This document shows positions 13,096-31,363 of a stretch of 40,124 nucleotides of DNA, piece by piece. This stretch comes from a virus. The translations under genes and the position numbers were made by a program. The stretch is from the UHGV virus genome UHGV-2156197; one strand, 5' to 3'. The first letter of the stretch is position 1. Every line of letters begins with the position of its first letter. Under the pieces are notes generated by a model. The model had not been told where the DNA came from and did no database searches. It worked only from the letters and a program-made list of their open reading frames with translations.

Positions 13096-13548
13096 TCAGC
13101 TGCCAGCTGCGGTACCCCAGGTGATGTTGTTCTGTTTTCCCTGAACAGTGATTTGAATGACTTCACTTGCCGGGGCAGTAATTTCATTCATCTGCCAGCC
13201 AGACAGGGCCAGAATCATGTTCGCCGTTCGACCATTTGGCAACTCAACGTAAAACTGTACGGTTTCCCGGTTCTCTGCTGCGTTGAGGAAATCAGCAAAG
13301 TCCTGGTTGGCTGGATCGTCAATAAAGCCCAGAGATTTTTCAGGTCCTTCAGGCAGGTCAGAGATAAACTGTTTACTGGTATCGATCAGCGTAGTGCAGT
13401 CCACAAAACTGCCCGTCTGTCCTGTAGCGCCCAGCGCTCTACAGTTAATGAGTGGTTTCATTGTTGCTACGTTGCTGCCCGCAGCCCCCCACATAACGAC
13501 GGTGCCAGCAGGCAGCATCGCGTACTCTGGCGAAGTTTTATCAGCCAT
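13096..13548 (-). CDS. major tail (tube) protein
   Basis: 150 aa; position immediately upstream of G/GT and followed by a terminator, as for lambda V-type genes; call by synteny. Confidence 0.65.
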   Translation of the reverse strand: MADKTSPEYAMLPAGTVVMWGAAGSNVATMKPLINCRALGATGQTGSFVDCTTLIDTSKQFISDLPEGPEKSLGFIDDPANQDFADFLNAAENRETVQFYVELPNGRTANMILALSGWQMNEITAPASEVIQITVQGKQNNITWGTAAGS

Positions 13549-15282: not shown

Positions 15283-16494
15283 TCAGCTACCAGCGCCAGT
15301 GCGGAATGCACCGTATACAAATGCTTCAGGGCGTTTGACGGCCAGCGCCAGACGTTCCTCGCAACGGATGGTGATCATGTTTTTCTCGAAGTCGTCGGCG
15401 TTCTCCGTGGAGATAACAACGTTCGCATCTTCGCGGTCGAAGATTTGCGCGCCAGCGTTGAAAGCACCAGTCAGGAATTTACCCTGGAAGGCTGCCGCTT
15501 CCGTGGCAACAACCGGCAAGCCCCACAGCGTCGGACCAGTCAGCGCTGCAGGGTTAGCCAGGATGTAGCGGCCCAGGCTATCTTTCGTCAGCTCGATCCG
15601 TGCCCAGTCAATGAAGTGAAGAACGTGGCCGGATGCCGGGAAGCGCGCCAACTGTGCCTGCAGCATTGCCAGACGCAGATCGTCAATACCGCTCTGCTGT
15701 TCAACAGTAAACGCCGGGTTAAACGCTGACGCCTGAGGAACGATGCCATGCAGATGCACACCGGTGCCGTCACCGAAGAGAATTTCCTGCTCTTCCGCGT
15801 ACTTCAGTCCGTAGCGCATTTCGGCATCAACGGTTGACTGCAGCTGTGCGAAATCATCCAGGATCTGCTTGGAGGCTTTGAACAGGTGAGCGATGGTGCT
15901 GACGCCAGTGATTTTCGGCGTAAACTCAATGTCGCTGTAGGGTTTCTGCGTATTCTCAGGAACCACTTTCGCGTTATTGGTAAAACCCGTCTGCTGCACC
16001 CAGAAAATAGCCGGGGAGGAAGTGCGGCCAGGAGCAATCAGATCGCGAATGAACAGGCGTTGTTTTGGTGCCGTATCGATGCCAGGAATTCGCTGGGGTT
16101 CGACAACACCATCAAGCACATCCGCAGAAGTCAGTGCCGCCTTAACCGGGATACTGATACGTTTTCCACCTTCCACGCCGGAGGCAAAGGTTTTCAGCGC
16201 TTCAGCAGAGATCACCTGCTGGCCGATTGATTCCACAACATGCTTCGCGTTTGCCAGCGGCATCTGGGCAACATGTTGCTCCAGTTCTCCCATAGCTGCC
16301 TTCAACGTTTTTTCTGCCTCACGCAGGGCGTTGAACTCAGAAGCCATTTTATCGACGGCCGCCTTTGTTTCTTCTGAAAGCTTGCCGGACTTCTGCGCCT
16401 CCTTCACTGCTTCTTCTGCTTTCGCGTTGAACTTGCCGGTTGCCTCTTCAATGCTGGCGGTGACTTTTTTCAGAATATCGTTTACTTCAGACAT
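15283..16494 (-). CDS. major capsid protein (HK97 fold, with N-terminal scaffolding delta domain)
   Basis: 403 aa; coiled-coil N-terminus then HK97-type capsid region; follows the prohead protease. Confidence 0.85.
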   Translation of the reverse strand: MSEVNDILKKVTASIEEATGKFNAKAEEAVKEAQKSGKLSEETKAAVDKMASEFNALREAEKTLKAAMGELEQHVAQMPLANAKHVVESIGQQVISAEALKTFASGVEGGKRISIPVKAALTSADVLDGVVEPQRIPGIDTAPKQRLFIRDLIAPGRTSSPAIFWVQQTGFTNNAKVVPENTQKPYSDIEFTPKITGVSTIAHLFKASKQILDDFAQLQSTVDAEMRYGLKYAEEQEILFGDGTGVHLHGIVPQASAFNPAFTVEQQSGIDDLRLAMLQAQLARFPASGHVLHFIDWARIELTKDSLGRYILANPAALTGPTLWGLPVVATEAAAFQGKFLTGAFNAGAQIFDREDANVVISTENADDFEKNMITIRCEERLALAVKRPEAFVYGAFRTGAGS

Positions 16495-17365: not shown

Positions 17366-18670
17366 CTAAGCGGCCTGTTTCAGCGGAGATTGTTCAAAGG
17401 AAATATCGGGGAATACGTGGTTATGCAGCTCTCGCAGGGCCAGGGCCTGAACAGCAGGGTTGCTGCTTTCGAGATTTTTCAGTTGCGTCAGGTTGAGCTG
17501 AACGGTGTAAATATCTCCCCCTTCAATTGGCGGCATGTTCTCAAGACGACGAACGTCATTACGGGACATCCAGCCATTCTGAAGCGCGCTGGTATAGTAT
17601 GCCGCGCGACCGGCACTATCGGCTCGCAGTAGACCTTCAACAGAGAATTCTGCAAACACTTCGTCATCGCTGTCGAGTAAGCACCGGCCAATTTCCTGCT
17701 CAATATTCACCAGCAGCGGTCGAAGAGTATGAGTCAGGAACTGCAGGTTCATACCCTCGAGGCTGGATGCCCAGCTGCTTTGTTTCGTGGTGTGGCCAAC
17801 CATGAAAGGAGGTACACGAAACCAGCGGCAGATTTCCTCAATACTGAAAGAGCGGCTTTCCAGCATCTGGGCGTCTTCCGGATTCATGGTAACGCCCTGA
17901 TACTTCAATCCGCCTTCAAGTACCATGATTTTCCCGGCGTTTTTTGAACCGGTAAATGCAGCCATGTAGCTACGGAGTCTTTCACGTTGTTCGTCACTCA
18001 GCGCATTATCAGCGGAGAGAAAACCTGAACTCTGAAGCCCCTGTTCAAATATCTTCGCAGCAGACTCCTCAACCGCCATTGCTGAACCGATCACATCCCG
18101 TCCGGTTTTCATCGGCATCATGCCGCAAACACCGTCCAGACCGAACCCGCGAATGTGCATGATGTTTTTGACGGAAATGACGCGCTCGCTACCGTTTTCA
18201 GTGTATTTGTATTCCAGCGCCCCGGAAGTGAGACGTTTAACCACCATGTTCTGCGGCAGCAAAGGCACCAGCGAAACCAGGCGATTTGCGATGAATTTCT
18301 TCTCAATGAAGGCGTTCCCGCGCAGGCAGATACTGGCGACCACCATCAACATAAAGCGTGATGGCGTCATTTCTGAATTGGGACGGCGGCACAGTATCGA
18401 ATAGGCAGGGTGATCGGTTGCTGCTTTTCGTGAACCGTCAGGCTGTCGAATGTATATTTTCAGCGGAAGGGTTGAAATAGACTCACTTAACAGCCTTACG
18501 CATGCCCACACAGCCGATAGCTGAATGGCTTTATCGGCCGTTACCACCTTTCCGCTGCTGCTGGTACCAAACCATTCCTCCCAGAACGAGCCGGTAGTGA
18601 GGCTGATAGGCACACCGAGCCAGTTAAGCAGAGCGCTTTTCACCCTGCCAGGCTGTTTGTTTTTTTTCAT
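17366..18670 (-). CDS. portal protein (HK97 family)
   Basis: 434 aa between terminase and protease; HK97 portal family features. Confidence 0.85.
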   Translation of the reverse strand: MKKNKQPGRVKSALLNWLGVPISLTTGSFWEEWFGTSSSGKVVTADKAIQLSAVWACVRLLSESISTLPLKIYIRQPDGSRKAATDHPAYSILCRRPNSEMTPSRFMLMVVASICLRGNAFIEKKFIANRLVSLVPLLPQNMVVKRLTSGALEYKYTENGSERVISVKNIMHIRGFGLDGVCGMMPMKTGRDVIGSAMAVEESAAKIFEQGLQSSGFLSADNALSDEQRERLRSYMAAFTGSKNAGKIMVLEGGLKYQGVTMNPEDAQMLESRSFSIEEICRWFRVPPFMVGHTTKQSSWASSLEGMNLQFLTHTLRPLLVNIEQEIGRCLLDSDDEVFAEFSVEGLLRADSAGRAAYYTSALQNGWMSRNDVRRLENMPPIEGGDIYTVQLNLTQLKNLESSNPAVQALALRELHNHVFPDISFEQSPLKQAA

Positions 18671-20406
18671 CAGAAACCTACCATGATGGGATTATTGAAG
18701 AATCCGGAAAGATCCTGCTGGTCGTTGCCACCGTTAACCAGAACGCGGCTCATTGCTGTGAACAATGCCGCCGGGCCATCAATCTTGGCCTCTGGTGTGG
18801 ACTTGTTCGGGAAAATATTCTCGTTCCTGTCAGGTTTGACGGTTACGTTGGACATCATCCAGTTCATTACCGGGTGATCGCTGTGATGGAAGCGGCCACC
18901 ATATACCAGTGCTTCGACCTCTTTCATCGCCTCAGAGAAATTGCGAACCGTCTGCGGCACCTCCACCAGTGGCAACCCTTCTTCTGCCAGCGCAAGGCTG
19001 AACTGCGTAGCACTCCAGGGATCGAAGCCAATTTCTTTCAGATTCTCGCCAGCAACCCACACCTGCAGCTCTTCCTTAATCTGAGCATGGTCGATTACAT
19101 CCCCGTCGGTAAGGATCAGCTTGTCCAGCTCAGCCCACTTACGATAGAGCTCTGCCATCTGGCGTGAACATTTCTCAAGGCGTCCTTCCGGAAGCCAGAA
19201 TTTAAAATCCGCGTGAACGTGGCCACCTGGCGCGCGCCAGACTTTAGCGGCCGCACAGATATCAATTTTGTTTGAAAGGTCAACGCCCACCCAGGAGGGA
19301 TAGGTTTTAAGTTCGTGCTGCGGGGCGATAAACTCGCATTTCTCCCATTTCATCATGTCCATCCAGGCAGACTCTGCCGTAACCCAGATATTCATGTGCT
19401 TGGTGAAAAAGTTAATCCTGGCCGAAACCTGCTCTTTCGCTTTTTTTGCCAGACGCCGCAAGTCATCCCAGCGCTTACAGATACCCAGCCCCGGATTGGC
19501 CTTCTGCCAGACTTTTTCATCAAATGGATCGTCACCTTCATCTAAGGTGTAGATGATGGCAAAAAACGTATCGTCTTTAACCAGGCCGCGCAGGACCTTG
19601 ATGGCGTAATCACGCAATTCGTAACAGATACCTTCTTTGTTGAAACCAGCGGTGGTGATACCGAAAAGCAGAGATTGCAGGCGCGCGCCGGTGGCCGTCT
19701 CCAGAACGTCCCAGACGTCACGCGTTTTATGAGCATGCAGCTCGTCAACGATGGCGCAGTGGATGTTCAGGCCGTCGAGGTTGTTTGCATCTGATGATAA
19801 TGGCTCGAATTTGGAGGCCGTTTGCTCCTGGTAGATAGCGAGCTTGTTGAATTCGAAGATCCGCCCAAGAGTGGCTTTCGCCTTCTTGACCATATTTTTC
19901 GCGTCTTCAAAAACAATTCTCGCCTGGTCACGGGTTGTAGCAGCGGAATAAACCTCCGCCCCTCCCTCGCCGTCGGCACCAGCCATATACAGCCCTACGC
20001 CGGAGCAAAGCGTTGATTTGGCATTTTTACGGGCCACCTCAACATCTGCTGTACGGAAACGCCGAACCATCACCGGTCGACCGCTGCCGTCGTTACGCAG
20101 GACGTTTTCCCCCGTATCTTCGTTAACCAGCGGGATAACAAAACCAAAAATATTAATCAGGATGAAAACATGCCAGTCCATCAGCTCAATAGGCTGGCCT
20201 GCCAGCGCGCCTTTGACGTGAGGGACAAAATTATAGAAATTCAGAATGTGCTGCGCGCGCGGCTCACTGAAGAAAATACCGCGCTCTTCGCCGTGGGCCA
20301 GATCGTCAAGAAAACGCTGACAGGCAAGGCGCACATACTCACAGGCAATAATTTCCCCCGCCACCACCCTCTCGGCGTAGCGGATGCCTTCTGCAACCTT
20401 AGCCAT
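18670..20406 (-). CDS. terminase large subunit
   Basis: 578 aa; size, position and terminase_1-type pattern; ATG overlaps the small-subunit stop. Confidence 0.9.
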   Translation of the reverse strand: MAKVAEGIRYAERVVAGEIIACEYVRLACQRFLDDLAHGEERGIFFSEPRAQHILNFYNFVPHVKGALAGQPIELMDWHVFILINIFGFVIPLVNEDTGENVLRNDGSGRPVMVRRFRTADVEVARKNAKSTLCSGVGLYMAGADGEGGAEVYSAATTRDQARIVFEDAKNMVKKAKATLGRIFEFNKLAIYQEQTASKFEPLSSDANNLDGLNIHCAIVDELHAHKTRDVWDVLETATGARLQSLLFGITTAGFNKEGICYELRDYAIKVLRGLVKDDTFFAIIYTLDEGDDPFDEKVWQKANPGLGICKRWDDLRRLAKKAKEQVSARINFFTKHMNIWVTAESAWMDMMKWEKCEFIAPQHELKTYPSWVGVDLSNKIDICAAAKVWRAPGGHVHADFKFWLPEGRLEKCSRQMAELYRKWAELDKLILTDGDVIDHAQIKEELQVWVAGENLKEIGFDPWSATQFSLALAEEGLPLVEVPQTVRNFSEAMKEVEALVYGGRFHHSDHPVMNWMMSNVTVKPDRNENIFPNKSTPEAKIDGPAALFTAMSRVLVNGGNDQQDLSGFFNNPIMVGF

Positions 20407-20903
20407 TAATCCCTCGCTTTCATAAACTCGGTCAGCGGGTCAACCGCATCAGGACCTTTTGCATTCACTTTAGAGCGGCTGGCTGGCGTCATACCGAACT
20501 CTCCGAGCATGGCGCGAAGACGTTTCCAGGCATCAGCTTTCATGATGGCCGCCGGGTGAGCCTTGATCATGCGAATCTCTCGCTCTTTGCCTTCGTCTGG
20601 TTCTTCGTCGCTATATACGGCGTAGGTATAGCCTTCTCTCTCCAGAGTATCGCAGTGATGCCGGTACTCGGTGTAAACCTCAACCAAAATCTCAAGCGCT
20701 CTCGCGTCCAGCTGCGACATGACGCCAAGCGCATCGAGCTCTTCAGCCATACGCTTGAACCAGTATTTTCCCTGCTTGTCGAAATGCTTCGGCGTTGGGG
20801 GTACCCCTGCAGCTGGCTTTGGTTCGTTTTCATTAATCGGGCGTTTTGATGGGTTACCCCTCACCAAACGTAGATGGGTCGGGGTTTTCGGTGGTCCAGA
20901 CAT
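20406..20903 (-). CDS. terminase small subunit (P27 family)
   Basis: 165 aa; P27-family-like sequence; TAGGAG SD upstream. Confidence 0.8.
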   Translation of the reverse strand: MSGPPKTPTHLRLVRGNPSKRPINENEPKPAAGVPPTPKHFDKQGKYWFKRMAEELDALGVMSQLDARALEILVEVYTEYRHHCDTLEREGYTYAVYSDEEPDEGKEREIRMIKAHPAAIMKADAWKRLRAMLGEFGMTPASRSKVNAKGPDAVDPLTEFMKARD

Positions 20904-21060: not shown

Positions 21061-21411
21061 TCATTTGAGTCTTTCAACTGCTGTCTTCGCCCTGTGGCAA
21101 GGCTTGCAGAGGCTTTCGAGGTTGGAAAGGTCATCGGTCCCCCCATTTGCTTTGGCGGTGATGTGGTCCACCGTCTCAGCGGGTGTATACCTTCCATTTC
21201 GCAGGCATTCCTGACAAAGGTGTTTATCCCTGTCGAGAACGATTGGCCGCAGCCTGTCCCACTTGCTGCCATAACCTCGCTGATGCCTGCTCTGTCCTCG
21301 CTGATGCTGCTGCCAGCCTTCGTTAAGGTGCTTGGGACAATAGCCTGAGCGTTCAGTGGTTGTGCCAGAGCAGCCACGCTTGCGGCATGCTCTCGGTATT
21401 AACGCAGGCAT
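21061..21411 (-). CDS. HNH endonuclease (packaging-associated)
   Basis: Cys-rich HNH motifs (CPKH..., HITAKANGG, CKPCH); track start 21426 is GTG; ATG 21411 overlaps the upstream stop (TGATG). Confidence 0.8.
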   Translation of the reverse strand: MPALIPRACRKRGCSGTTTERSGYCPKHLNEGWQQHQRGQSRHQRGYGSKWDRLRPIVLDRDKHLCQECLRNGRYTPAETVDHITAKANGGTDDLSNLESLCKPCHRAKTAVERLK

Positions 21412-22001
21412 CAGGCTAACCTCCACGCCCGGCGGCGTTCTGTTCGTGGTGCTGAGTCAGGGTGACGCTCAACCGGTTCGCCGTCTGCGTGGTCCACCAG
21501 CGACCAACAGGGATAGACGACAACGCCACCATAAGCATCGCCCACGGCATAATCGGCAGGCTTACTGCCGTCCCATTGAGACAGCACACGGCTGATGCTT
21601 TGAGGCGGTATGCTGTAGCACACGCCATGTATCAGGCGTTGCAGCATAATGAAGTCAGACCTCACCTTATCCGCATTAATCAGGCGTTCAGCTATCTGCA
21701 TTTGGTATTGCGGTGGCCGCCCGGTGCCCAGATAAAAACTAAGCATGTCGCCAGGGAAACGAGCCAGCCAGCCCGTAAGCTTGTCTCTGAATCCACGTAC
21801 AGGCAGCGCGTCGTCTTCCAGTACCACCACCCGGCAAGGCTGCTCAGCAGCCCATTCGATAGCGCGCCGGTGATTCCAGTTAGCCCCGTGATTCCCTTCA
21901 TCGATAAGAAGGTGCGCGCCAAGTTCACCAGCCAGCAATGCAGCTGAGGCGTAACGGGAATGATGGCCAACCACAACAAACTTCACTTGTGTTTCCACCA
22001 T
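21411..22001 (-). CDS. putative GT-A-type glycosyltransferase (possibly GT25-like)
   Basis: 196 aa; GELGA...VVVLEDDALP block resembles the GE-GC...EDD motif of GT25-type transferases; weak, from memory. Confidence 0.35.
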   Translation of the reverse strand: MVETQVKFVVVGHHSRYASAALLAGELGAHLLIDEGNHGANWNHRRAIEWAAEQPCRVVVLEDDALPVRGFRDKLTGWLARFPGDMLSFYLGTGRPPQYQMQIAERLINADKVRSDFIMLQRLIHGVCYSIPPQSISRVLSQWDGSKPADYAVGDAYGGVVVYPCWSLVDHADGEPVERHPDSAPRTERRRAWRLA

Positions 22002-23440
22002 GCTGCCTCCTTACCGATACCATCAGTTTTGAAAACGGTATGTACCAGAGGGCCGGTGACCAACCTGTCAGCGAATGACTGCGCAACGATACCGAACGCC
22101 AGCATGTCACCCACCGCTGCGCCAGCCTGTTCTTTCTTCCAGAAACGATAACTCTCGATCCGGTAGTAAAGACGGATGATGCCATGAGCGAACGCCATCA
22201 CATCAGCGCGGGTGCCTCCCAGAAGACCAGCATTAAGCATCACATCGCCGCGGTGCGCTTCAATGAATTCCTGATAGATACGCTCAGGATGATTCTGTTT
22301 CGCCCAGGTGTCGGCGTAGATCTTCGGTTCAGAACCGACGTAAACATTCCCGGGCTGCATTTCTTCCCACGGTGCGCGGAGCATTTCGACATCGGTACCA
22401 TCGGTACACCAGACGAACCGGTATTCAGGGTGATCGCGCAGGTGCTGCCAGATATGCAGCCAGCGCCGGAAGTAGACATTCATCTTCACGTCAGGGACGC
22501 GATACAACTCAACGTCTGCCGATGCCGTCTGCAGCTCATCCACCAGCGCAATACGGCCACAATTCCGAAGCGAGGCAGCCCACCTGGTCAGCATGTCTGA
22601 TACGGCCGCCATTTTCGTACCGCGCTGCGGGTCTGGCTGGCTGGTAAGCAACGTTGTGATTACCACGTCGCGCTGAGATCGATATTCGGCATAGCCTGTA
22701 TATCCTGAATCCCGGCGCTGCCCGTAAATTACAGCGTTCTTTTTATAGAGCGCTTCACGTTCAGGCCTCGGTATGCTGCGCGCGCCCTCTTCGTATTCAT
22801 CCATTGAGTGAATCAGCTTTTCAGAGCCAACCACATCAGCAAACGCCCAGGACGTTAAGCCAGCGTTATAAATCCGAAGCGCCAAATCAGGATGCTCATA
22901 CATGCCTCGACCGTATACCGGATCGAATCCGCCAACCTTCTCAATGGCGCTGCGGTGGTAGTACAGCATCACACCGCGCTGCCCGGTGTAAGCGATATGC
23001 TTATCATCCTGGTGCAGGACGGTCATATCGTTTATCTTTCGTGGACCAGCCAGATCGAGAAACTGGTAAGCCAGGTGTGACTCAGGTGATTCGATGTAAG
23101 GCAGGTGCCAGTTATCGGCAACCGGCCATGCGTCATCATCCCACAGGAAGAGATGCTCACATCCGGCGTCCACCAGCGCTTCGAGGCTTCGGTTTTTCGA
23201 GGCCACAATGCCGAGGGATGTTTCATTGCGAAGCAGCTGCACGCCGTCGGGAACGACTGCGGCAGGTTTTGAACCATCATCTATGACAACCACGAGCGCG
23301 CCGGACGGTAAAAATTGATGATGCTGCGCCAGTGTCCGCTTCAATACGTCAGGGCGATTATGCGTTGTGATTGCTATTCCTATGCGTGACACCGAATTGC
23401 AGACAGGCGCGTATGGAACACCATCGATAGTGACCTGCAT
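21983..23440 (-). CDS. two-domain protein with N-terminal GT2-family glycosyltransferase domain
   Basis: 485 aa; IGIAITTHNRP...VVVIDDGS and DDD (FLWDDDAWP) motifs of GT-A/GT2 enzymes; C-terminal about 250 aa of unknown function; overlaps the next gene by 19 bp. Confidence 0.6.
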   Translation of the reverse strand: MQVTIDGVPYAPVCNSVSRIGIAITTHNRPDVLKRTLAQHHQFLPSGALVVVIDDGSKPAAVVPDGVQLLRNETSLGIVASKNRSLEALVDAGCEHLFLWDDDAWPVADNWHLPYIESPESHLAYQFLDLAGPRKINDMTVLHQDDKHIAYTGQRGVMLYYHRSAIEKVGGFDPVYGRGMYEHPDLALRIYNAGLTSWAFADVVGSEKLIHSMDEYEEGARSIPRPEREALYKKNAVIYGQRRDSGYTGYAEYRSQRDVVITTLLTSQPDPQRGTKMAAVSDMLTRWAASLRNCGRIALVDELQTASADVELYRVPDVKMNVYFRRWLHIWQHLRDHPEYRFVWCTDGTDVEMLRAPWEEMQPGNVYVGSEPKIYADTWAKQNHPERIYQEFIEAHRGDVMLNAGLLGGTRADVMAFAHGIIRLYYRIESYRFWKKEQAGAAVGDMLAFGIVAQSFADRLVTGPLVHTVFKTDGIGKEAAWWKHK

Positions 23441-23548: not shown

Positions 23549-23806
23549 ATGACAGATCTGCAGAAACGCATTGATGAACTCGAAAAAACTATTGAAGAGC
23601 TACTTTTAGATCAGCATGCAGCAAGAATTGCTATTACCACGATATCCACAGCTTGGAACTCCCTTGCCAAACAGCCTGGTATGCTTGGCGATAGCTACGA
23701 TAAAGCTTTTAAATCAGCGCCGCCTGTGGAGTTTGAAAACCCAGTAAATGAAGGTTATGCAGAAGAGTTACATAAAAGAGTTGTAGCCCTACTTTCTAAA
23801 TCTTAA
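23549..23806 (+). CDS. hypothetical small protein with coiled-coil N-terminus (opposite-strand moron)
   Basis: 85 aa; only plus-strand gene inside the minus-strand late region; AT-rich; own promoter and SD. Confidence 0.55.
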   Translation: MTDLQKRIDELEKTIEELLLDQHAARIAITTISTAWNSLAKQPGMLGDSYDKAFKSAPPVEFENPVNEGYAEELHKRVVALLSKS

Positions 23807-23842
23807 TCGAATCGTTTGGGCTACCTTTAAGTGGCCCTATTT

Positions 23843-24367
23843 CTAATGTCTCCCTTCCTCAATATCCCTAATCCCTGCCAGTTGGTTGTTACCCTTCTCT
23901 ATCTCTGCAAGTAATGATTGAATCCAGAGAACGGCCTGACAATAGGTTATTGAGCTGGCGGCAGCGGTACTATCATCGGCTGCGTCAGTGTCCCCGGTAT
24001 CGGGGTGCATTGCGCTGGCACGTAAACGGTTCGCGTAGTTGAGCAGCCCACCAGCGACATTAGCAGGAACAGGCAGATCACAGGTTTTTTCACGGCGAAG
24101 AATCTCCCGGTATTCGATAACGGTCTTTTCGGTTCCGGCATCAATCAGCGAGTTCAGGCGACTGGCGTTCTCCGCTACCTGGTTAAACCGGTTGAAGTTG
24201 AACGCCTGGGTAGTTATCACCGTTGCCTGCAGTGCGTTATCGTTGCGCAGTATCCGGTTGTCACTCTCTGACGTGGTCAACGCTGCATTGCTGCGCGCCA
24301 GTAGTACACAGAGCACCGCGATGAAGATGATTGCTGCCATCCCAACAATAACGAGGCTTCTGTTCAC
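23843..24367 (-). CDS. Rz: Rz-type i-spanin
   Basis: N-terminal TMD (SLVIVGMAAIIFIAVLCVLL) then coiled periplasmic domain; GTG 24367 overlaps the endolysin stop (GTGA) with GGGGGA SD; track start 24484 is an upstream GTG. Confidence 0.7.
   Translation of the reverse strand: MNRSLVIVGMAAIIFIAVLCVLLARSNAALTTSESDNRILRNDNALQATVITTQAFNFNRFNQVAENASRLNSLIDAGTEKTVIEYREILRREKTCDLPVPANVAGGLLNYANRLRASAMHPDTGDTDAADDSTAAASSITYCQAVLWIQSLLAEIEKGNNQLAGIRDIEEGRH
23947..24141 (-). CDS. Rz1: Rz1-type o-spanin lipoprotein embedded in Rz in the +1 frame
   Basis: Lipobox LVGC-S, proline-rich mature part; entirely inside Rz; ATG 24141 (track start 24144 is TTG). Confidence 0.65.
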   Translation of the reverse strand: MPEPKRPLSNTGRFFAVKKPVICLFLLMSLVGCSTTRTVYVPAQCTPIPGTLTQPMIVPLPPAQ

Positions 24368-24912
24368 TGGTCTATCCCCCAGCAAGCCAGCGCGCTTTCC
24401 TGGTCTCGCCTTTCTACCTGCCCATAACAACCATTCTTCTGCCCTTTGGTCAGGCGACAATCGCGGCCACCGTCTTTTATCCACCAGCGGATCGCTTCAC
24501 AGGCTCCTTTACGGTCGCCAGCATTAATTCGCTTATAGAACGTAGACGGGAAACATTTTCCGGGGCCGATGTTATATGGGCAGAAAGAAGCGATACCCGC
24601 TTTCTGTGGTTCCGTCAGTGGTACTTTGATATTTCGGTCAACCCACGCCAGCGCTTTATCGCGTTCAATAGCATTTACCTGAGCGCATTTCTCAGCAGGC
24701 AGCTTCATGCCCTGAACTACTGGCTTACCATCAACCATCGTTGCGCCACGACAAATGGTCCATATACCAGAGCCGTCCTTGTACGCTGTTGTGCTGTTAC
24801 CCTCTTTCTCATCCAGAAACTGATCGAGAATTACGGGTGCGGAAGCCCCGGCAAGAATTAACCCAACGACAGCTGCGCTCAGTTTATTCTTCAGCTTTTG
24901 TGGCATAGCCAT
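24364..24912 (-). CDS. SAR endolysin (GH24 lysozyme, P21 R-like)
   Basis: 182 aa; N-terminal Gly/Ala-rich SAR helix (LSAAVVGLILAGASAPVIL) then lysozyme domain; C-terminus CLWGQQ-like (ACWGIDQ) as recalled for P21 R. Confidence 0.85.
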   Translation of the reverse strand: MAMPQKLKNKLSAAVVGLILAGASAPVILDQFLDEKEGNSTTAYKDGSGIWTICRGATMVDGKPVVQGMKLPAEKCAQVNAIERDKALAWVDRNIKVPLTEPQKAGIASFCPYNIGPGKCFPSTFYKRINAGDRKGACEAIRWWIKDGGRDCRLTKGQKNGCYGQVERRDQESALACWGIDQ

Positions 24913-25162
24913 TGCGACGATCCTCCCGTTCTTTCCAGCGGAAATACCAGTTCACTGCACAGGTAATAACGGTGCATGCGATACCGACAATAATTGCCCA
25001 GTCGCTCAGGCTTAACCCTGCAATTCTGTCGGCCAACATCCAGGACACCTCTTTTGCTGTTTTAGCTGTTTCGGCGTATGCCTTCGCTGATACACCGCAG
25101 CCGGTCAGCGTGGTTCCTGTTCCATATGAAAGTCTGCTGTAAATGGTGCTCATTCTGGTCAT
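24884..25162 (-). CDS. pinholin (class II holin, S21-like) with dual-start motif
   Basis: 92 aa; MTRM dual ATG (25162 and 25153); weak TMD1, strong TMD2, C-terminal YFRWKEREDRRN like S21 YFKIREDRRK. Confidence 0.7.
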   Translation of the reverse strand: MTRMSTIYSRLSYGTGTTLTGCGVSAKAYAETAKTAKEVSWMLADRIAGLSLSDWAIIVGIACTVITCAVNWYFRWKEREDRRNGYATKAEE

Positions 25163-25327
25163 AGCCTCACCTCCGATAGTTCGGATGGCGCTGTGTGATG
25201 AAAGGAGGATCAGGCTTCTGGGCTCTTATGCAAAGGTGAAAGTAAGGGTGATTCCCAGAGCCTGAAATAGAAAAGGCCGCCAAATGGCAGCCTATAGATT
25301 ATGTCCCGCGTTTTACTAGAGAGTGAA

Positions 25328-25768: not shown

Positions 25769-26458
25769 TCACATTTCTGCCACTTTGAGGGCGTCTTCTT
25801 CCTCATAGTATTCAAGAGCCATGGCCAGCGCAGATTCATCAAGCTGGGTAAAAGCGGCCTTTAACCCAGCCCAGTGCCCTGAATAGACACGCAACCATGT
25901 CGAACGGTCAACGCTAACCATGCGGGCCAACGCTGCACCAGCATAGTCTTTATAGGTTTCATTATTTCTGGTTGCGGCAATTTCCTGCCCTGCCAGCCAT
26001 ACCAGGCCAATCAGTTTCTTTACTACGCGCTCCTGAAGGGAATTATCACCCAGGCATTTCTGATAAGTTTTCCAGACGTATTCACACATCATCACCTGGT
26101 GCTTATAGCTAAGGTCAAAACCGTAACAGTACCGCAACCAGGCCTGCTGGTATCCACTAAGCGCGGACACTGCCCTACGCCACGGCGCTGACTCAAATTC
26201 CGCATCTTTTATCGGCGGCATTGGCCTACGGCGGCTGCGTGTTTCCAGCACATACAGTGGCGCGGAAAGCGAGTTAACAAAGCGTGGCCCCTTATCTCCT
26301 TCGAGTTCGACGAGATGAATTCCACGGCGCGGGGTGGCATTTTTATCTGCTGGTGGGTGTTCACTGAAAGCCTCAAGCTGCCCTTTTGTTCCCCCAGAGA
26401 GGTCAGGTAGCGCGCGGCGCAATTCTATTCTGACAAAATTCAGGTCTTGTTGATTCAT
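25769..26458 (-). CDS. putative late antiterminator Q
   Basis: Position immediately upstream of tR'-like terminator and lysis genes; family assignment from memory only; ATG 26458 chosen, alternative GTG at 26479. Confidence 0.4.
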   Translation of the reverse strand: MNQQDLNFVRIELRRALPDLSGGTKGQLEAFSEHPPADKNATPRRGIHLVELEGDKGPRFVNSLSAPLYVLETRSRRRPMPPIKDAEFESAPWRRAVSALSGYQQAWLRYCYGFDLSYKHQVMMCEYVWKTYQKCLGDNSLQERVVKKLIGLVWLAGQEIAATRNNETYKDYAGAALARMVSVDRSTWLRVYSGHWAGLKAAFTQLDESALAMALEYYEEEDALKVAEM

Positions 26459-26479
26459 GCTTCTTTGCGCTCCATACAC

Positions 26480-27475
26480 TTAAGCTTTCGCAATTACGCC
26501 GATCGCCAGCGCCCGATCCATAAAACGCAGTAGCAGCTCAAGCTGCGTACCATGCTTCTGCTCGAATGCCGGTACATCGGCGTGTAACTCGTCGTGGCAC
26601 TCTCTGCACAGAGGGATCACGAAGAGGTCATGGGCTTTTGTTGCTGTACCACCCATACCATGCCCTACGATATGGTGCGGATCATCTGCTGGCCGTCGGC
26701 AACACTCACAGGGTTGTGTTTTAACCCAGCGGGTGTACGTCTCATTTATCCAGCGGCGTCGCTTTGGCCTGAGCATGAAAGATTCTGGAGATTCCGGATC
26801 AACAGAGAGCGTGAGGATCTTCTTCGCCTTCTCCTGCACGAGGCTGGTTGCAGAAGCGGAAGGCACAATGTCGCTTTCCCTCATGACCGAGCGGATCTTC
26901 TCATCCGGAAGGCGTAGCCCCTTGTGCGCAACGCTTTCCGGCATAACATCAGCCAGGTCGTTTCTGACCATCCACCAGCACAGTTCCGGAAGCGTCAGGA
27001 TATGCGACTCGGGAAAACCAGAATCACGCAGAATGACTTCCAGAATCCAGGATACCAGGTTTCCTGCCGCTATACCTGCAAGCTGTTCGGTATGCTGCCC
27101 CGACAAAGTGTGATCGCAATGCCAGCACAGGCGAATACTTCCTGGTGGGTGCCGCATTGTTGTGAAGTTCTTGTCGTGCCACGTTGAATGTGGCCACTGG
27201 CATTCAAATCGATTACTCAACCATTGCTCAAGGGAAGGAAGCCCGCCGGCACGCTGAATAACCCGCTCATTCCCGAAGACCTGCCGCATTACCGGATCAT
27301 CAGCCAGCGGCTGAATGGCGGCGGGAACAGCTCCTGTACTGAATGACGCCATTTCTTCTGGTTCAGGCTCGAGCAGAACGCGACCGCGCATAAAGAGGTG
27401 CATCAGTTCCGCGCCGGGACGAAACAACACAATCCCCATGCGATGGGCGACTTCAGGAGTTAACAAAGCCCTCAC
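26480..27475 (-). CDS. DUF968-like nin-region protein with C-terminal HNH/zinc-finger-like motif
   Basis: 331 aa; C-terminal CECC...HHIVGHG...CRECHDELH; GTG start overlapping the upstream stop (GTGA) with AGGGGG SD. Confidence 0.55.
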   Translation of the reverse strand: MRALLTPEVAHRMGIVLFRPGAELMHLFMRGRVLLEPEPEEMASFSTGAVPAAIQPLADDPVMRQVFGNERVIQRAGGLPSLEQWLSNRFECQWPHSTWHDKNFTTMRHPPGSIRLCWHCDHTLSGQHTEQLAGIAAGNLVSWILEVILRDSGFPESHILTLPELCWWMVRNDLADVMPESVAHKGLRLPDEKIRSVMRESDIVPSASATSLVQEKAKKILTLSVDPESPESFMLRPKRRRWINETYTRWVKTQPCECCRRPADDPHHIVGHGMGGTATKAHDLFVIPLCRECHDELHADVPAFEQKHGTQLELLLRFMDRALAIGVIAKA

Positions 27476-28171: not shown

Positions 28172-28558
28172 TCAGGCGGCTGCACCCGCCGGTTCATATC
28201 TGCTGATCGTTATCTCTACCCGACCTTTCGGCACAACGGGTCCCCATTCCACCAGCATGCGCTTAATCTGGCTGTCGTCTTCCCAGACACCCGCATGCGT
28301 CAGCGCGTCAAACAGGGCTTTGTTGTAATTATCGATATCCCGACGGCGCGCATCCGGCGGGTACAGAGTGATTTCTACCGCTGCCAGTTCAGTCGATGGC
28401 TTCGGGAGACGTCGTAATTGCTCAATGATCGCCACGCAGGCAGCGCTCTGGTATTTACGACCATCAGCGCTAATGAGGTGACGACCGGCCAGCGGCCCCT
28501 TGTTAGGGGCGCGCCAGTAAGTGTTCACGCTCGGAGGGAACGGGAGCACAAGTTTCAT
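28172..28558 (-). CDS. rusA: crossover junction endodeoxyribonuclease RusA
   Basis: MKLVLPFPPSVNTYWR...RRDIDNYNKALFDALTHAGVWEDDSQI matches the RusA family; AGGAGGTG SD before ATG 28558. Confidence 0.85.
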   Translation of the reverse strand: MKLVLPFPPSVNTYWRAPNKGPLAGRHLISADGRKYQSAACVAIIEQLRRLPKPSTELAAVEITLYPPDARRRDIDNYNKALFDALTHAGVWEDDSQIKRMLVEWGPVVPKGRVEITISRYEPAGAAA

Positions 28559-30489
28559 GCCACCTCCTGCTGTTGCACTGCACACAGTTCCGGAAGATTT
28601 GCCTCAACCAGCGCCCGGGCGAATGGTGGTGGTACCGCATTACCGCAGCGGGCTACCTGCTTATCTTTTGCATAGCGATTTCCACGGTAGTCCTGATCAA
28701 TAACGTAACCATCCGGGAAGCCCTGCGCTTTGTAGAGTTCATGCGGCTGCAACATGCGCATTCCGATATCAACGATCTGGTATTTAACCCCATCGATCGT
28801 TACCAGCCATTCATCGTCACTTTCCCCGCAATACGTCTCGAGAAATGTGCGTACCTCACCCACGTGTTGGCCACCAGCAGTGATTGTTGGCATTGGCACA
28901 TCAAGGCGTTGCCCGTCGCGGCATGTTCCACGCAGTTTCACCAGATGAGAGGCAACTACCGCATGATGGTCGACAGTGGTCACTGAATGCGCGGGTTCAT
29001 CCATACTGACACCCGGCCCCGTATAGTTACCGCCGTAGTGTTTCGCCAGGAATGCGCTCACCGTCGCAAATTTATTTCCGCCTGCAGTAACGGTCCCCAG
29101 CGGGTTATCCAGTCGCAGCACACGCGGTTCTTGTCCAGGTCGTTCGCCATAACCCATCTGAATCAGCGTAGGCGTTACCAGTTGAGATTTACCGCCACCA
29201 CCAGCGGTGATGGTTGCGCTCGGTTCGTCTGCACGGTGGCCGACGCTGGCCCCAAACTGGCGGGCTATCACTGGCGCAACAAGACAGGCTCGGGATTGCT
29301 TCAGAATGGTATGAGCAGGTTTATTCAGCGGGCGCGGTTTAGCCTGGTATTCACTACCACCATTACCCGCCAGGAATGGTGTCAATGCAGCCTCAACAAT
29401 CCCGAGAGCATGCCCGTTCCCGCCCGGGCGTTTTGACGTGCCAGCGGTTACCGTCGGAACAGGTTCGGTAACGGGCTGCCCGGTTGCGCCAGTGCGGAAT
29501 TTTGTAAGGTGTGGAACGGCTAACGCGTAGCCGAGTTTTTTAGTAATGGTCTGTAATGGCTCATTCAGTGACTGTCCGCGAAAAGCGTCATACGCATTTT
29601 TTGAGCTCGTGTGGTTGCACTTCACGATAAACGGCGACGCACTTTCGATAACAAAGCGCTGTATGCCGCGTGCGATCCGCTTCAGAGTGTTCTCTGCCAG
29701 CGGTTTTTTGCGGTCGAAGATGGACAGAGCCGGAACATTCCAGTCGATACATTCCGCAGCGGTACGCCATGGCATCAGCCTGCCGCTCTGCACCTCCAGT
29801 GACTTGGGATCCCCATGGGTTACAACAGGCCACTGAATAGGGCAACCATCGCAGCGCATAACCATGAAGAAGCGTTTGCGGATCGTCGGCGCGCCGTAAT
29901 CACACGCGCGCAGTTCGCGATAATCAACATCATATCCAAGCCCTTCCACCAGCTGTTTGGCCTGCGTGCTGCCAGGATCAATAGCAAGAAATTCGCAGAC
30001 CTCCGCCAGTGCCGGGTGATCGGCAGGAATGCCAGTGGAAAGCATGCCGACAAAAGCATTGAATGTTTCGCCAGTGCGGGCAGGGTCTGGACGCATTTCA
30101 TCGGCCAGCAGCGGTCCCCACGTTTTAAACTCTTCCACGTTCTCCAGCATCATCACGCGCGGTCGCTTCGCCAGTGCCCAACGCAGAACGATCCAGGCCA
30201 GACCGCGTATCTCTTTTTTCACAGGCTTTGCGCCTTTGGCCTTTGAGAAGTGTCGGCAGTCCGGGCTAAACCATGCCAGGCCAACAGGATTGCCGCCGGT
30301 GGCGGCTACCGGATCCACGTCAAATACGGATTCACAGTAATGCAGTGTGTCAGGGTGGTTCGTCTTGTGCATCGCAATGGCGTTTTCGTCGTGGTTGATC
30401 GCAATATCCACGCTGCGTCCGATCGCCAGTTCAATACCCGTTGATGCACCACCGCCACCAGCAAAGTTATCAACGATAATCTCACGCAT
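28555..30489 (-). CDS. DNA (cytosine-5)-methyltransferase, unusually long, with repeated target-recognition-like segments
   Basis: 644 aa; motif I FAGGGG, motif IV SPDCRHFS, motif VI ENV, motif X GNAV; four TxTAGG repeats in the variable region. Confidence 0.85.
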   Translation of the reverse strand: MREIIVDNFAGGGGASTGIELAIGRSVDIAINHDENAIAMHKTNHPDTLHYCESVFDVDPVAATGGNPVGLAWFSPDCRHFSKAKGAKPVKKEIRGLAWIVLRWALAKRPRVMMLENVEEFKTWGPLLADEMRPDPARTGETFNAFVGMLSTGIPADHPALAEVCEFLAIDPGSTQAKQLVEGLGYDVDYRELRACDYGAPTIRKRFFMVMRCDGCPIQWPVVTHGDPKSLEVQSGRLMPWRTAAECIDWNVPALSIFDRKKPLAENTLKRIARGIQRFVIESASPFIVKCNHTSSKNAYDAFRGQSLNEPLQTITKKLGYALAVPHLTKFRTGATGQPVTEPVPTVTAGTSKRPGGNGHALGIVEAALTPFLAGNGGSEYQAKPRPLNKPAHTILKQSRACLVAPVIARQFGASVGHRADEPSATITAGGGGKSQLVTPTLIQMGYGERPGQEPRVLRLDNPLGTVTAGGNKFATVSAFLAKHYGGNYTGPGVSMDEPAHSVTTVDHHAVVASHLVKLRGTCRDGQRLDVPMPTITAGGQHVGEVRTFLETYCGESDDEWLVTIDGVKYQIVDIGMRMLQPHELYKAQGFPDGYVIDQDYRGNRYAKDKQVARCGNAVPPPFARALVEANLPELCAVQQQEVA

Positions 30490-31363
30490 GGGTTACCCCC
30501 TGCATGCTGCCAACAAGACCACGCGCAATTGTGATAATTTCGCTGGTGGCCGTTCGTTCCAGCCAGAGTTGATTGATGTTGGCTTTCAGTTTGTTCTGCT
30601 GGGCCTCGCTCAATACATCAACGCCTTCCACCTGGTTAAACACCAGACCAACCTCGAGAGGCCAAATTCGTGACTCAGTTTCCGGTGTTGCTGCTGGTTC
30701 CTTAGCTGCCTGCATTGCAATTGTTTGCTCTTTACCAACGGCGAATTGAGCCAAAGCCATAAACGCCCGCCCTTTTTCTTCCAGTTCGGTACGGCTGATG
30801 TAGCTGAAACGCTCTCCGCGCCATGACTTATCAAAGATTGCAATAGCACCAGCAAAGAAAGCACCAGTGGGCTTCTGCTTATCATCAGCAGGAACAAACC
30901 ACACAGGGAGATCGAAGCCAATACGACCGCGGATAAACATGATGTGATCGGCATCTTCCGGCCACCATGTTTCACTTGTCGCCGCTTTAATGAGGAACAC
31001 GTAACGCCCACTCTTTTCACGCATTTCCATTGTGCGATCCATGATGTGGGTCATGCCGGTTATCGCCTGTTTCTCGTGGTACTGCGAACGGCTATATGGT
31101 GGATTACCGAATGCGGCCCCGCCGATTGATTCCAGCATTTCCGCCCAATCTTGTACCAGCGCGTTATCTTCGGCGGTGTACCACACAGGGCACTTAGCGT
31201 TATCGTCATCAGCAAAGAGATCCAGCGTCAGCGGGCCGAACATCGCATTAATGCCCCAAAAAAGCAGGTCCGGTGTCCGCCACTGATCGCCAACTTCTTT
31301 CAATTCGTGGGCTGGTTGGCTACGTAGTGCCACCAGCGCCTGGCAATATTTGTTTAACGTCAT
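30482..31363 (-). CDS. phage-type DNA N6-adenine methyltransferase (Dam family)
   Basis: 293 aa; WRTPDLLF and GNPPY motifs; about 100-aa C-terminal extension. Confidence 0.75.
   Translation of the reverse strand: MTLNKYCQALVALRSQPAHELKEVGDQWRTPDLLFWGINAMFGPLTLDLFADDDNAKCPVWYTAEDNALVQDWAEMLESIGGAAFGNPPYSRSQYHEKQAITGMTHIMDRTMEMREKSGRYVFLIKAATSETWWPEDADHIMFIRGRIGFDLPVWFVPADDKQKPTGAFFAGAIAIFDKSWRGERFSYISRTELEEKGRAFMALAQFAVGKEQTIAMQAAKEPAATPETESRIWPLEVGLVFNQVEGVDVLSEAQQNKLKANINQLWLERTATSEIITIARGLVGSMQGVTHA

Follow-up and report, generated by a model that had tools for sequence, protein, structure and literature searches.

Two adjacent genes of an enterobacterial HK97-like prophage, encoding proteins of 485 aa (GT485) and 196 aa (GT196), probably form a cassette for O-glycosylation of the virion, in which GT196 would initiate and GT485 extend a glycan on the terminal Gly-Ser of both the phage's major capsid protein (MCP) and its major tail (tube) protein (MTP); we put the probability of this reading at roughly three in four. 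The prophage was examined as a stretch of 40,124 nt (UHGV virus genome UHGV-2156197), and "the window" refers to this stretch at its full length. To our knowledge, glycosylation of phage particles has been demonstrated only for mycobacteriophages, work on which is said to have noted little evidence for it elsewhere, and we know of no glycan observed on any enterobacterial phage. As reported for mycobacteriophages Che8 and Corndog (Freeman et al. 2023, Cell Host Microbe 31:1216), O-glycosylation of the C-termini of capsid and tail-tube proteins requires enzymes that include gp110 and gp38, respectively, and the account of that study in PMC12619734 likewise places glycans at the C-terminal ends of these subunits. 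Of the 23 papers citing Freeman et al. 2023 in the literature searched, none describes virion glycosylation for phages of Gram-negative bacteria.

Organisation and transcription of the cassette

GT485 (21983..23440, minus strand) and GT196 (21411..22001, minus strand) lie directly downstream of the lysis cassette on the same late transcript, with the holin (24884..25162), lysozyme (24364..24912) and Rz-like spanin (23843..24484) genes on one side and, on the other, a packaging-associated HNH endonuclease gene (21061..21411), followed by TerS (20406..20903) and TerL (18670..20406), which continue the late operon; all are on the minus strand. By profile annotation, every gene neighbouring the pair belongs to lysis or packaging. 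An earlier note on this DNA had described two overlapping genes in this position, with a 19-bp overlap and a TGATG coupling of the smaller gene to HNH, and each of these points was confirmed: the GT485 stop codon (TGA, 21985-21983) lies within GT196, whose ATG at 22001 is preceded by a good ribosome-binding site (junction ...AAGGAGGcagcATGGTGGAAACACAAGTGA), giving an overlap of 19 nt, while the GT196 stop and HNH start codons are fused as GCCTGATGCC (TGATG, 21413-21409). Since phage HK542 and dozens of other viral and prophage loci keep both the pair with its 19-nt overlap and the position it occupies, GT485 and GT196 are real genes under selection, not chance open reading frames.

The note's statement that the pair is co-transcribed with packaging genes was supported. 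Downstream of a Q-like antiterminator gene (25769..26479), consensus matches on the minus strand mark a promoter-like site (25327-25298) and, after it, a hairpin resembling a terminator (25293-25274), and this segment (25274..25327) is likely the pR'/tR' start of the late operon. The GT pair belongs to this Q-dependent late transcription unit, and scanning for a promoter of its own gave no match above chance. Neither protein contains a hydrophobic segment, the maximum KD19 values being 1.37 for GT485 and 1.00 for GT196; the controls reached 1.99 (holin) and 3.27 (spanin).

Sequence and structural analysis of GT196

GT196 can be aligned with Che8 gp110 from one end to the other (35% identity, 192 of 196 aa, E=3e-28) and shares 31% identity over 206 aa with Corndog gp38; a phrog_854-type annotation is common to GT196 and the gp110/gp38 family, and tblastn found homologues in 662 mycobacteriophage records. 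Joint alignments of the enterobacterial and actinophage proteins contained 20-21 invariant columns, with N43, H44, Y90, L91, G92, H171, D173 and R190 among the invariant residues. The GT-A-like EDD block to which the earlier note had drawn attention (E62 D63 D64) showed little or no variation among 61-62 homologues, the mycobacteriophage proteins included. Structure prediction, from an alignment in which the Che8 and Corndog sequences were left out, confidently modelled GT196 as a small, soluble GT-A fold with an acidic metal/nucleotide-sugar motif.

GT196 itself matched no Pfam family, and so fell short of the PF01755 gathering score, and no NCBIfam family; of its 61 aligned relatives, however, 27 matched PF01755 with E<=0.01 (best 1e-7), and many relatives from actinophages are assigned to PF01755 in precomputed annotations. 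PF01755 (GT25) includes the LOS/LPS beta-1,4-galactosyltransferases and the collagen galactosyltransferase ColGalT1. On these sequence matches GT196 is best described as a distant relative of GT25, and we do not call it a member; it is also shorter (196 aa), and its predicted acceptor is a protein C-terminal serine, not LOS or hydroxylysine. The role proposed for it is to recognise the C-terminal Gly-Ser tag and add the first sugar.

Domain architecture of GT485

GT485 matched the PHROG 'glycosyltransferase' family phrog_1579 over its full length (2e-246). The "clear GT2 signature" reported by the earlier note overstated the strength of the evidence, as PF00535 scored 20.3 bits over residues 22-107, below the cut-off of 23.3, although 68 of 90 members of the GT485 family did match PF00535. 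NCBIfam returned only N-terminal GT2-type matches far below threshold, and a sequence search of GT485 and GT196 against PDB sequences gave nothing useful. The 250-aa C-terminal region called unknown indeed belongs to no Pfam family, yet it models as a second GT-A-like domain, so that the soluble protein is confidently predicted to consist of two GT-A domains with an acidic DxD-type motif in each: a GT2/Glyco_transf_7C-like N-domain (~18-250; D54 D55, D101-D103, E182 H183) and a C-domain (~255-485; D270 Q272 R273, D347 T349 D350, N403 G405 G408 G409) in which D347 and D350 are conserved.

This architecture resembles that of bifunctional synthases with two GT-A domains, namely E. coli K4 chondroitin polymerase (K4CP), Pasteurella heparosan synthase (PmHS2) and LARGE1, but GT485 is only 9-19% identical to these, is about half their size and has a C-domain outside any Pfam family. 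A glycan-extending role is proposed for GT485, which may also polymerise as these enzymes do.

C-terminal Gly-Ser on capsid and tail-tube proteins

The two predicted acceptors are the MCP (403 aa, phrog_10; 15283..16494, minus strand), which ends ..VYGAFRTGAGS with the Gly-Ser codons GGT AGC at 15291-15286, and the MTP (150 aa, phrog_158; 13096..13548, minus strand), which ends ..ITWGTAAGS with GGC AGC at 13104-13099. They are the only real genes in the window, among ~57 gene-like ORFs, whose products end in GS. The corresponding ends are ..NKTGS (MCP) and ..YSDGS (MTP) in Che8, and ..PLVGS (MCP) and ..IKGDS (MTP) in Corndog.

In a set of 80 prophages, each a species representative carrying a related capsid gene, the MCP ended in GS in 11 of 11 that carry the GT genes (GT+) but in 3 of 57 that do not (GT-; p=2.4e-10), and the MTP did so in 11/11 GT+ versus 2/40 GT- (p=1.6e-9). 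With IMG/VR loci pooled in, the counts were 54/56 GT+ versus 5/70 GT- for the MCP and 52/54 versus 4/47 for the MTP. On a tree of the MCP core, the GT state required 12 changes and the GS tail 9, and at least six separate capsid clades had GT+/GS tips beside GT-/non-GS sisters; the association did not therefore arise from a single inheritance event. It was seen in four capsid families.

Loci selected by their GT genes gave the same picture, as all 52 recognised MCPs and 54 of 61 MTPs ended in GS. Two further capsid types also ended in GS, a protease-capsid fusion of 644-658 aa (..GAGAGS; ..GSNQGS in one variant) and a 408-aa capsid (..GAGSGS); BLAST matched neither to the MCP of the window or of HK97 at E <= 0.01. 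The tail-tube proteins formed two BLAST families and are not fully independent, since all belong to one PHROG superfamily, phrog_158. In some tails (..IPKEQPGS, ..PQKIDPGS and ..VPLVGS of Corndog) the terminal serine is the sole hydroxyl residue in the last 6-8 positions. In an instance of co-variation, at the locus with the most divergent GT485 of its set (L077; 67% for GT485, 75% for GT196) the MCP ends ..GATS and the MTP ..AATS. Exceptions were found in both directions: HK97 and five loci (L006, L008, L089, L102 and L134) have a GS-ending capsid and no GT genes, in two GT+ loci (L078 and L022) one of the two partners lacks the GS ending, and 7 of the 61 GT-selected loci have a non-GS tail tube. 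The HK97 capsid tail (..SSGS) is identical to that of its GT+ relatives HK542 and mEp390, whereas its tail tube is of the Ig-domain type and ends ..LTIS. No other gene class consistently ended in GS.

Comparison with known viral glycosylation systems

In Che8, gp110 is reportedly the initiating enzyme, and an exact attachment residue is likewise reported. The Che8 glycosyltransferase genes (gp108-109-110) are followed by gp111, gp112 (HNH), cos, TerS and TerL, and the order of glycosyltransferases, HNH, cos and terminase at the right end of Che8, where the late region ends, is also that of the window. The window contains three elements of the Che8 type, a full-length homologue of gp110 and gp38, an adjacent further glycosyltransferase and candidate C-terminal acceptors on both MCP and MTP, where the capsid and tail-tube C-termini are GS or DS in Che8 and Corndog and GS in both proteins of the window. 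The systems nevertheless differ from Che8 gp108-110 and Corndog gp35-38 in their hosts, which here are Gram-negative Enterobacterales, and in the partner of the gp110-family enzyme: GT485 is a single two-domain protein that showed, by BLAST and profile comparison, only generic GT-A similarity to Che8 gp108 and gp109 and Corndog gp36/37. The window cassette also has no methyltransferase-like module, and on account of these differences the glycan of the window would be expected to differ from that of Che8 or Corndog. Virion glycosylation has been shown experimentally in those phages, whereas for the window it is predicted from sequence. Capsid glycosylation by virus-encoded cytoplasmic glycosyltransferases, such as A64R and the multidomain A111/114R, is also found in the chlorovirus PBCV-1, but this virus infects eukaryotes and attaches its atypical N-linked glycans internally; it has no C-terminal tag, and its enzymes show no specific homology to the window cassette.

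Proposed pathway and alternative explanations

We propose that the cassette is expressed late, from the Q-antiterminated transcript that it shares with the genes for lysis, packaging, head and tail, and that both products act in the cytoplasm. GT196, as a metal-dependent GT-A enzyme, would recognise ...Gly-Ser-COOH at the extreme C-terminus of the MCP and MTP and transfer a first sugar from a nucleotide sugar onto the terminal serine, after which GT485, with its two catalytic GT-A domains, would add more sugars, possibly building a repeating chain in the manner of two-domain glycan synthases. The finished particle would then carry a glycan on every capsid and tail-tube subunit. The benefit may lie, for instance, in protection against antibodies or against other recognition of the particle surface; alternatively, the glycan may have a function similar to that of the Ig-like decoration domains whose place the tag occupies.

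The earlier note had named virion glycosylation, envelope modification and DNA modification without choosing among them; our data favour the first and lend poor support to the others. Lysogenic conversion, in which the enzymes would act from the cytoplasmic side on a glycan of the host envelope (LPS core, O-antigen precursor, ECA or capsule) so as to change a receptor and exclude superinfecting phages, deserves a hearing because the Rz-cos slot is a classic site of lysogenic-conversion morons and because the typical targets of GT25 enzymes are LPS and LOS, both of which count against virion glycosylation. We consider it unlikely. The pair lacks a promoter match above chance from which it could be expressed in the lysogen, it is also present in a virulent-type jumbo Klebsiella myophage, and conversion would leave unexplained both the correlation between the cassette and a Gly-Ser ending of capsid and tail tube and the homology and gene order shared with the Che8 virion-glycosylation genes. 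The gtrABC modules are likewise glycosyltransferases encoded by temperate enteric phages, but they comprise a GtrA flippase, a GtrB-type bactoprenol glucosyltransferase and a polytopic GtrC beside int/att. No such gene adjoins the window pair, whose late-operon position, away from the integrase, and lack of transmembrane segments, a flippase or another membrane partner agree with the note's remark that its layout is unlike gtrABC.

Glycosylation of 5-hydroxymethylcytosine or another modified base before packaging, which would evade restriction, was likewise considered, as such pathways are known in phages (bioRxiv 10.1101/2023.12.21.572611), the GT genes adjoin packaging genes, and the window encodes Dam and a C5-cytosine methyltransferase of 644 aa (28555..30489). 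The TET/JBP-associated glycosyltransferases (TAGT, PF20691) are phage GT-A enzymes too, and 17 of 90 GT485-family members matched PF20691 weakly. These matches, however, were all below the cut-off in the members examined individually (<=23.9 versus 27.5 bits) and overlapped a stronger GT2 match, and GT485 of the window had none. The ORFs scanned included no TET/JBP dioxygenase or other hydroxylase of the kind that a 5hmC cluster would be expected to contain; the methyltransferase lies 5 kb from the cassette and is not co-distributed with it, there being no GT+ phage among the best 30 of 284 records with a methyltransferase homologue; and the Gly-Ser association would be left unaccounted for. 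This lead was rejected, and we regard DNA glycosylation as very improbable. Protein glycosylation could also proceed with the roles reversed, the ppGalNAc-T-like N-domain of GT485 initiating on serine and GT196 extending, or be directed at other phage or host proteins, for instance to dampen defence systems that recognise capsid or tail proteins. Neither variant seems probable, given that GT196 is the sole enzyme that the window has in common with Che8 and Corndog, which share the acceptor tag, that phage HK633 retains only the GT196 homologue, and that the Gly-Ser ending is consistent in no gene class beyond capsid and tail tube.

Distribution and significance

The cassette occurs in prophages of Enterobacter, Citrobacter, Klebsiella, Cronobacter, Salmonella and E. 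coli, and one protein cluster at 90% identity alone holds 4655 sequences. HK97 is the archetype of capsid assembly, and the carriers include close relatives of it that grow on E. coli K-12 (HK542 and mEp390). Should the cassette work as proposed, glycan-coated virions would be widespread. That would have consequences for the immune recognition and clearance of therapeutic phages, for phage behaviour in mucus, for how unexplained cryo-EM density and mass shifts are read, and for engineering, as a two-residue tag and two genes could suffice for virion glycosylation.

A broader and more speculative reading, which we judge less likely than not, makes Gly-Ser-COOH a portable glycosylation tag that gp110-family enzymes would read in phages of Actinobacteria and of Proteobacteria alike. 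Unrelated families of capsid and tail-tube proteins would have acquired it repeatedly, in some cases as a substitute for an Ig-like decoration domain, and GT485 would be a polymerising synthase that cloaks the particle in polysaccharide. Glycan-coated virions would then be a common feature of gut Enterobacterales prophages and of Klebsiella jumbo phages, and two appended residues would make any virion protein glycosylatable. For the Klebsiella jumbo phage phiKp24, the three regions inspected (~58 of 307 kb) contained no annotated capsid gene. The RefSeq locus tags of this phage differ from its published gp numbering.

Gene organisation and late transcription unit

The genes for the two glycosyltransferases (GT), GT485 (485 aa; 21983..23440, minus strand) and GT196 (196 aa; 21411..22001, minus strand), meet in the sequence AAGGAGGcagcATGGTGGAAACACAAGTGA, read directly from the window. 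GT196, preceded by a good ribosome-binding site, has its start at 22001 and GT485 its end at 21983, so that the two overlap by 19 nt, and TGATG at 21413-21409 combines the GT196 TGA with the ATG of the HNH gene. On the 5' side of the pair lie holin, lysozyme and Rz-like spanin genes and on the 3' side those for HNH, P27-type small terminase, large terminase, portal, protease, major capsid protein (MCP, 15283..16494), connectors and major tail tube protein (MTP, 13096..13548). ORF coordinates, junction and neighbours bear out the earlier note, which had described overlapping, HNH-coupled genes between the lysis cassette and HNH/terminase within the late operon. Between the Q-like antiterminator gene (25769..26479) and holin, just before the latter, a promoter-like site precedes a terminator-like hairpin, and the stretch from lysis to tail genes therefore reads as a single unit of late transcription; near the GT genes, promoter-like matches were not in excess over shuffled sequence.

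The sole interruption of this unit is an 85-aa ORF on the plus strand (23549..23806), between the spanin gene and GT485, with a match to phrog_16546 (unknown function) and a good ribosome-binding site. With two promoter-like sites and a hairpin of terminator type (23818-23837) to itself, it resembles a reverse-oriented moron. In phages HK542 and HK97 this slot holds a KilA-N gene instead. The gene directly 5' of the antiterminator gene encodes a DUF968 protein of 331 aa (26480-27475, minus strand), weakly matching HNHc_6 nuclease.

The two enzymes and their mycobacteriophage relatives

The GT2 signature noted earlier in GT485 corresponds to a PF00535 match at residues 22-107, which is present but sub-threshold (20.3 against 23.3 bits); phrog_1579 ('glycosyltransferase') covers the full protein (2e-246). 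Among 1.84 billion cluster representatives, searched exhaustively, were 1528 relatives, most of full two-domain length, and 90 diverse members were aligned. PF00535 was matched in 68/90 and PF02709 in 62/90 of these in the N-domain, where D54 D55, D101-D103 and E182 H183 are conserved. The 250-aa C-terminal domain, described as unknown in the earlier note, indeed has no Pfam family across the 90 members, and models as a Rossmann-like alpha/beta domain; its conserved columns are D270 Q272 R273, D347 T349 D350, N403 G405 G408 G409 and D445. The AlphaFold2 model of GT485 (pLDDT 95.5) comprises two such domains. GT196, which had no match in Pfam or NCBIfam, matches phrog_854 (9e-72) and models as a compact GT-A domain (pLDDT 90.7). 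No membrane segment was found in either protein.

With GT196 as query, a translated search matched 719 of 50,697 phage records, 662 of them mycobacteriophages. Che8 gp110 aligns end to end with GT196 (35% identity over 192 residues, E=3e-28), as does Corndog gp38 (31%), and the joint alignment has 20 invariant columns, including N43 H44, E62, D64, Y90 L91 G92, H171, D173 and R190. The gp110 family connects to GT25 (PF01755). Enzymes of the gp110/gp38 type are reported, in PMC12363180, to be essential for mycobacteriophage capsid glycosylation, and PMC12619734 and PMC11600133, both summarising Freeman et al. 2023, place the glycans at the C-termini of capsid and tail-tube subunits. The right genome end of Che8 runs gp108 GT, gp109 GT, gp110 GT, gp111, gp112 HNH, cohesive end, TerS, TerL, the same order of GTs, HNH and terminase as in the window.

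Judged from sequence, the GT pair is the enterobacterial counterpart of Che8/Corndog virion glycosylation, by predicted function and by ancestry, and it shares every defining feature of that system that can be tested in this way. The systems differ in host group (enterobacterial against mycobacterial) and in the partner enzyme, which in the window is a single bifunctional protein with two GT-A domains and no relation to Che8 gp108/gp109; moreover, the window system has no methyltransferase-like module, unlike that of Che8/Corndog.

Gly-Ser C-termini and their association with the GT pair

The window MCP and MTP end in ..VYGAFRTGAGS and ..ITWGTAAGS, those of Che8 in ..FNKTGS and ..QYSDGS, and those of Corndog in ..VPLVGS and ..DIKGDS. 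Among ~57 gene-like ORFs checked in the window, MCP and MTP are the only real genes ending in Gly-Ser (GS); two further ORFs with this ending are short, antisense or out-of-frame. In several tails (..IPKEQPGS, ..PQKIDPGS, Corndog ..VPLVGS) the last residue is the sole hydroxyl residue, which points to the terminal Ser as the predicted glycan site.

In a sample of 80 IMG/VR contigs selected by capsid (MCP 87-100% identical to that of the window), loci with the GT pair (GT+) had exactly two coding-strand GS-ending genes, one for the MCP and one, in tail-tube position, for a protein of 147-237 aa. No GS-ending gene occurred in a group of IMG/VR loci lacking the pair (GT-; L064, L067-071, L073, L075-076, L079, L081), whose MCPs, 88% identical, end in ..TVPAPAGA. 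In a less redundant sample of 80 GTDB prophage loci, one genome per species (Enterobacterales, Pseudomonas, Halomonas), the MCP ended in GS in 11/11 GT+ against 3/57 GT- loci (p=2.4e-10) and the MTP in 11/11 against 2/40 (p=1.6e-9); with both samples pooled, the counts were 54/56 against 5/70 and 52/54 against 4/47, respectively.

Since linked genes are inherited together, ancestry was controlled with a tree of MCP cores from which the last 12 residues had been removed. Parsimony gave 12 changes of GT state and 9 of the GS tail, with GT+/GS tips (L103, L128, L093/L094, L090/L091, L135/L155 and the large window clade) beside GT-/non-GS sisters (L099, L104, L147 and others). The GT+ MCP tails vary (..STGAGS, ..TGGAGS, ..TVAESGS, ..TAPGSGS, ..TGASGS, ..LSGSGS), and those of GT- relatives are ..APAAGGGA, ..APAPAGA, ..APTTP and similar. 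Homologous tail tubes end in ..WIPKEQPGS or ..VPKAQAGS (GT+) against ..VWVPKAST, ..WIRKTA or ..WIPKV (GT-), and in ..KRIYASGS (GT+) against ..VPIVPAPAAA (GT-).

When loci were picked by GT196 rather than by capsid, 52/52 recognised MCPs, of both window and HK97 type, and 54/61 MTPs ended in GS, three further MTPs ending in ..PTS. Only 16 of the ~1870 remaining genes had a GS end, and seven of these are other capsid proteins, namely a 644-658-aa protease-capsid fusion (..NYGAGAGS; variant ..GSNQGS in L204) and a 408-aa protein (..LVGAGSGS). The fusion (IMG/VR L232 8557-10491, L248 13474-, L253 13230-, L204 5464-) has a prohead-protease-like N-terminus and a capsid-like C-terminus, and its gene sits between that for the large terminase, which it directly follows, and the presumed portal gene; in L247 the region is divided between ORFs of 189 aa and 455 aa. 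In locus L077 the residue preceding the terminal Ser has changed in concert, ..AGS being replaced by ..ATS at the ends of both MCP (9143-10402) and MTP (12148-12606); the GT485 of this locus is the most divergent of its set (67%) and its GT196 is 75% identical.

Exceptions and tail-tube decoration

The capsid of HK97 (gp5, L166 4028-5185) ends in ..SSGS although this phage lacks GT genes, and five further loci (L006, L008, L089, L102, L134) have GS tails without GT genes; the tag alone is therefore no proof of modification. Conversely, L022 and L078 are GT+ with one partner untagged. L026 (IMG/VR 3455-5108) has a truncated GT485 (458 aa, altered end), a GT196 of only 107 aa and a tail tube ending in ..VPKAAA, and its cassette appears to be decaying. 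Exceptions of this kind are to be expected if lambdoid phages exchange modules and a tag without use does no harm. The HK97 gp6 head-tail adaptor (L166 5219-5545) ends in ..SEEGS though GT genes are absent, and gp6-type adaptors end in ..EGS also in GT+ loci with HK97-type heads (L203, L212, L213, L216, L235); this adaptor could be a third target or merely carry a lineage trait.

All tail-tube proteins belong to one PHROG (phrog_158) and to two BLAST families, and are divergent, not independent inventions. HK542 and mEp390 share the HK97 capsid but carry the cassette as well, and their tail tube of 156 aa ends in ..ASGS, whereas that of HK97 runs on into an Ig-like domain and ends in ..LTIS. 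Comparison of HK97 (L166 6733-7437), HK542 (L167 6678-7148) and the window (13096-13548) showed a shared core (..LRLKGKP..), followed in GT- phages, HK97 for example, by an Ig-like domain of ~85 aa and in GT+ phages by a short Gly-Ser-terminated tail. The site of the predicted glycan is thus also that of the Ig-like decoration, and the two may be alternative ways of decorating the surface. In phage HK633, GT485 is absent and a GT196 homologue alone (L170 3297-3863; 67% identity) lies 5' of the HNH gene. HK633 has a capsid ending in ..SSGS and a tail tube of the Ig-domain type, and may represent a minimal system with a single sugar on the capsid alone.

Alternative roles of the GT pair

Envelope conversion would suit a slot rich in morons and the GT25 link of the GT196 family, but it is disfavoured, as the enzymes are soluble and without a flippase, the genes show no convincing promoter, the same pair occurs in a virulent-type Klebsiella jumbo myophage and, weightiest of the four, the pair tracks virion protein tails. 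DNA glycosylation is likewise disfavoured. The window does encode a 644-aa C5-cytosine methyltransferase and Dam, and 17/90 GT485 relatives match a TET-associated glycosyltransferase family; however, in those relatives that were inspected individually these matches are all sub-threshold and overlap a stronger GT2 match, the window GT485 gives none, no dioxygenase was found among the window ORFs scanned, and no GT+ phage was among the best 30 of 284 records with a methyltransferase homologue. The C5-cytosine enzyme (28555-30489, minus strand; early region; extra regions phrog_23072, phrog_116, phrog_13621) overlaps the Dam-type N6-adenine methyltransferase gene (30482-31363, minus strand), and phages Flotzy, Eeyore and phiNP have close homologues.

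Within the virion-glycosylation reading, the roles of the enzymes could possibly be reversed, because the GT485 N-domain resembles polypeptide GalNAc-transferases. Against this, GT196 is the sole component common to the window, Che8 and Corndog, and HK633 keeps GT196 alone; GT196 is favoured as the predicted reader of the tag.

Novelty and distribution

Both genes are already annotated 'glycosyltransferase' and 'glucosyltransferase', so their GT identity is not new. The proposed virion-glycosylation role, which is highly testable, the two-residue tag and the breadth of the cassette's distribution are apparently undescribed in the literature searched. It occurs in prophages of Enterobacter, Citrobacter, Klebsiella, Cronobacter, Salmonella, E. 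coli, Pantoea and Kosakonia, and a genome bearing the label Pseudomonas lundensis has it at one locus; isolated HK97-like phages and jumbo phages of the phiKp24 type carry it too. PhiKp24 (Klebsiella phage vB_KpM_FBKp24, L171) is a 307-kb jumbo myophage with cryo-EM structures of capsid and tail; its cassette (record 139828-141897; 486 aa and 196 aa, the latter 46% identical to GT196) lies far from the packaging genes. No capsid, sheath or tube gene was located in the ~58 kb examined of its 307 kb; within this part, between 'virion structural protein' genes, a 180-aa ORF (L173 24865-25407) ends in ..QDGFSAGS.
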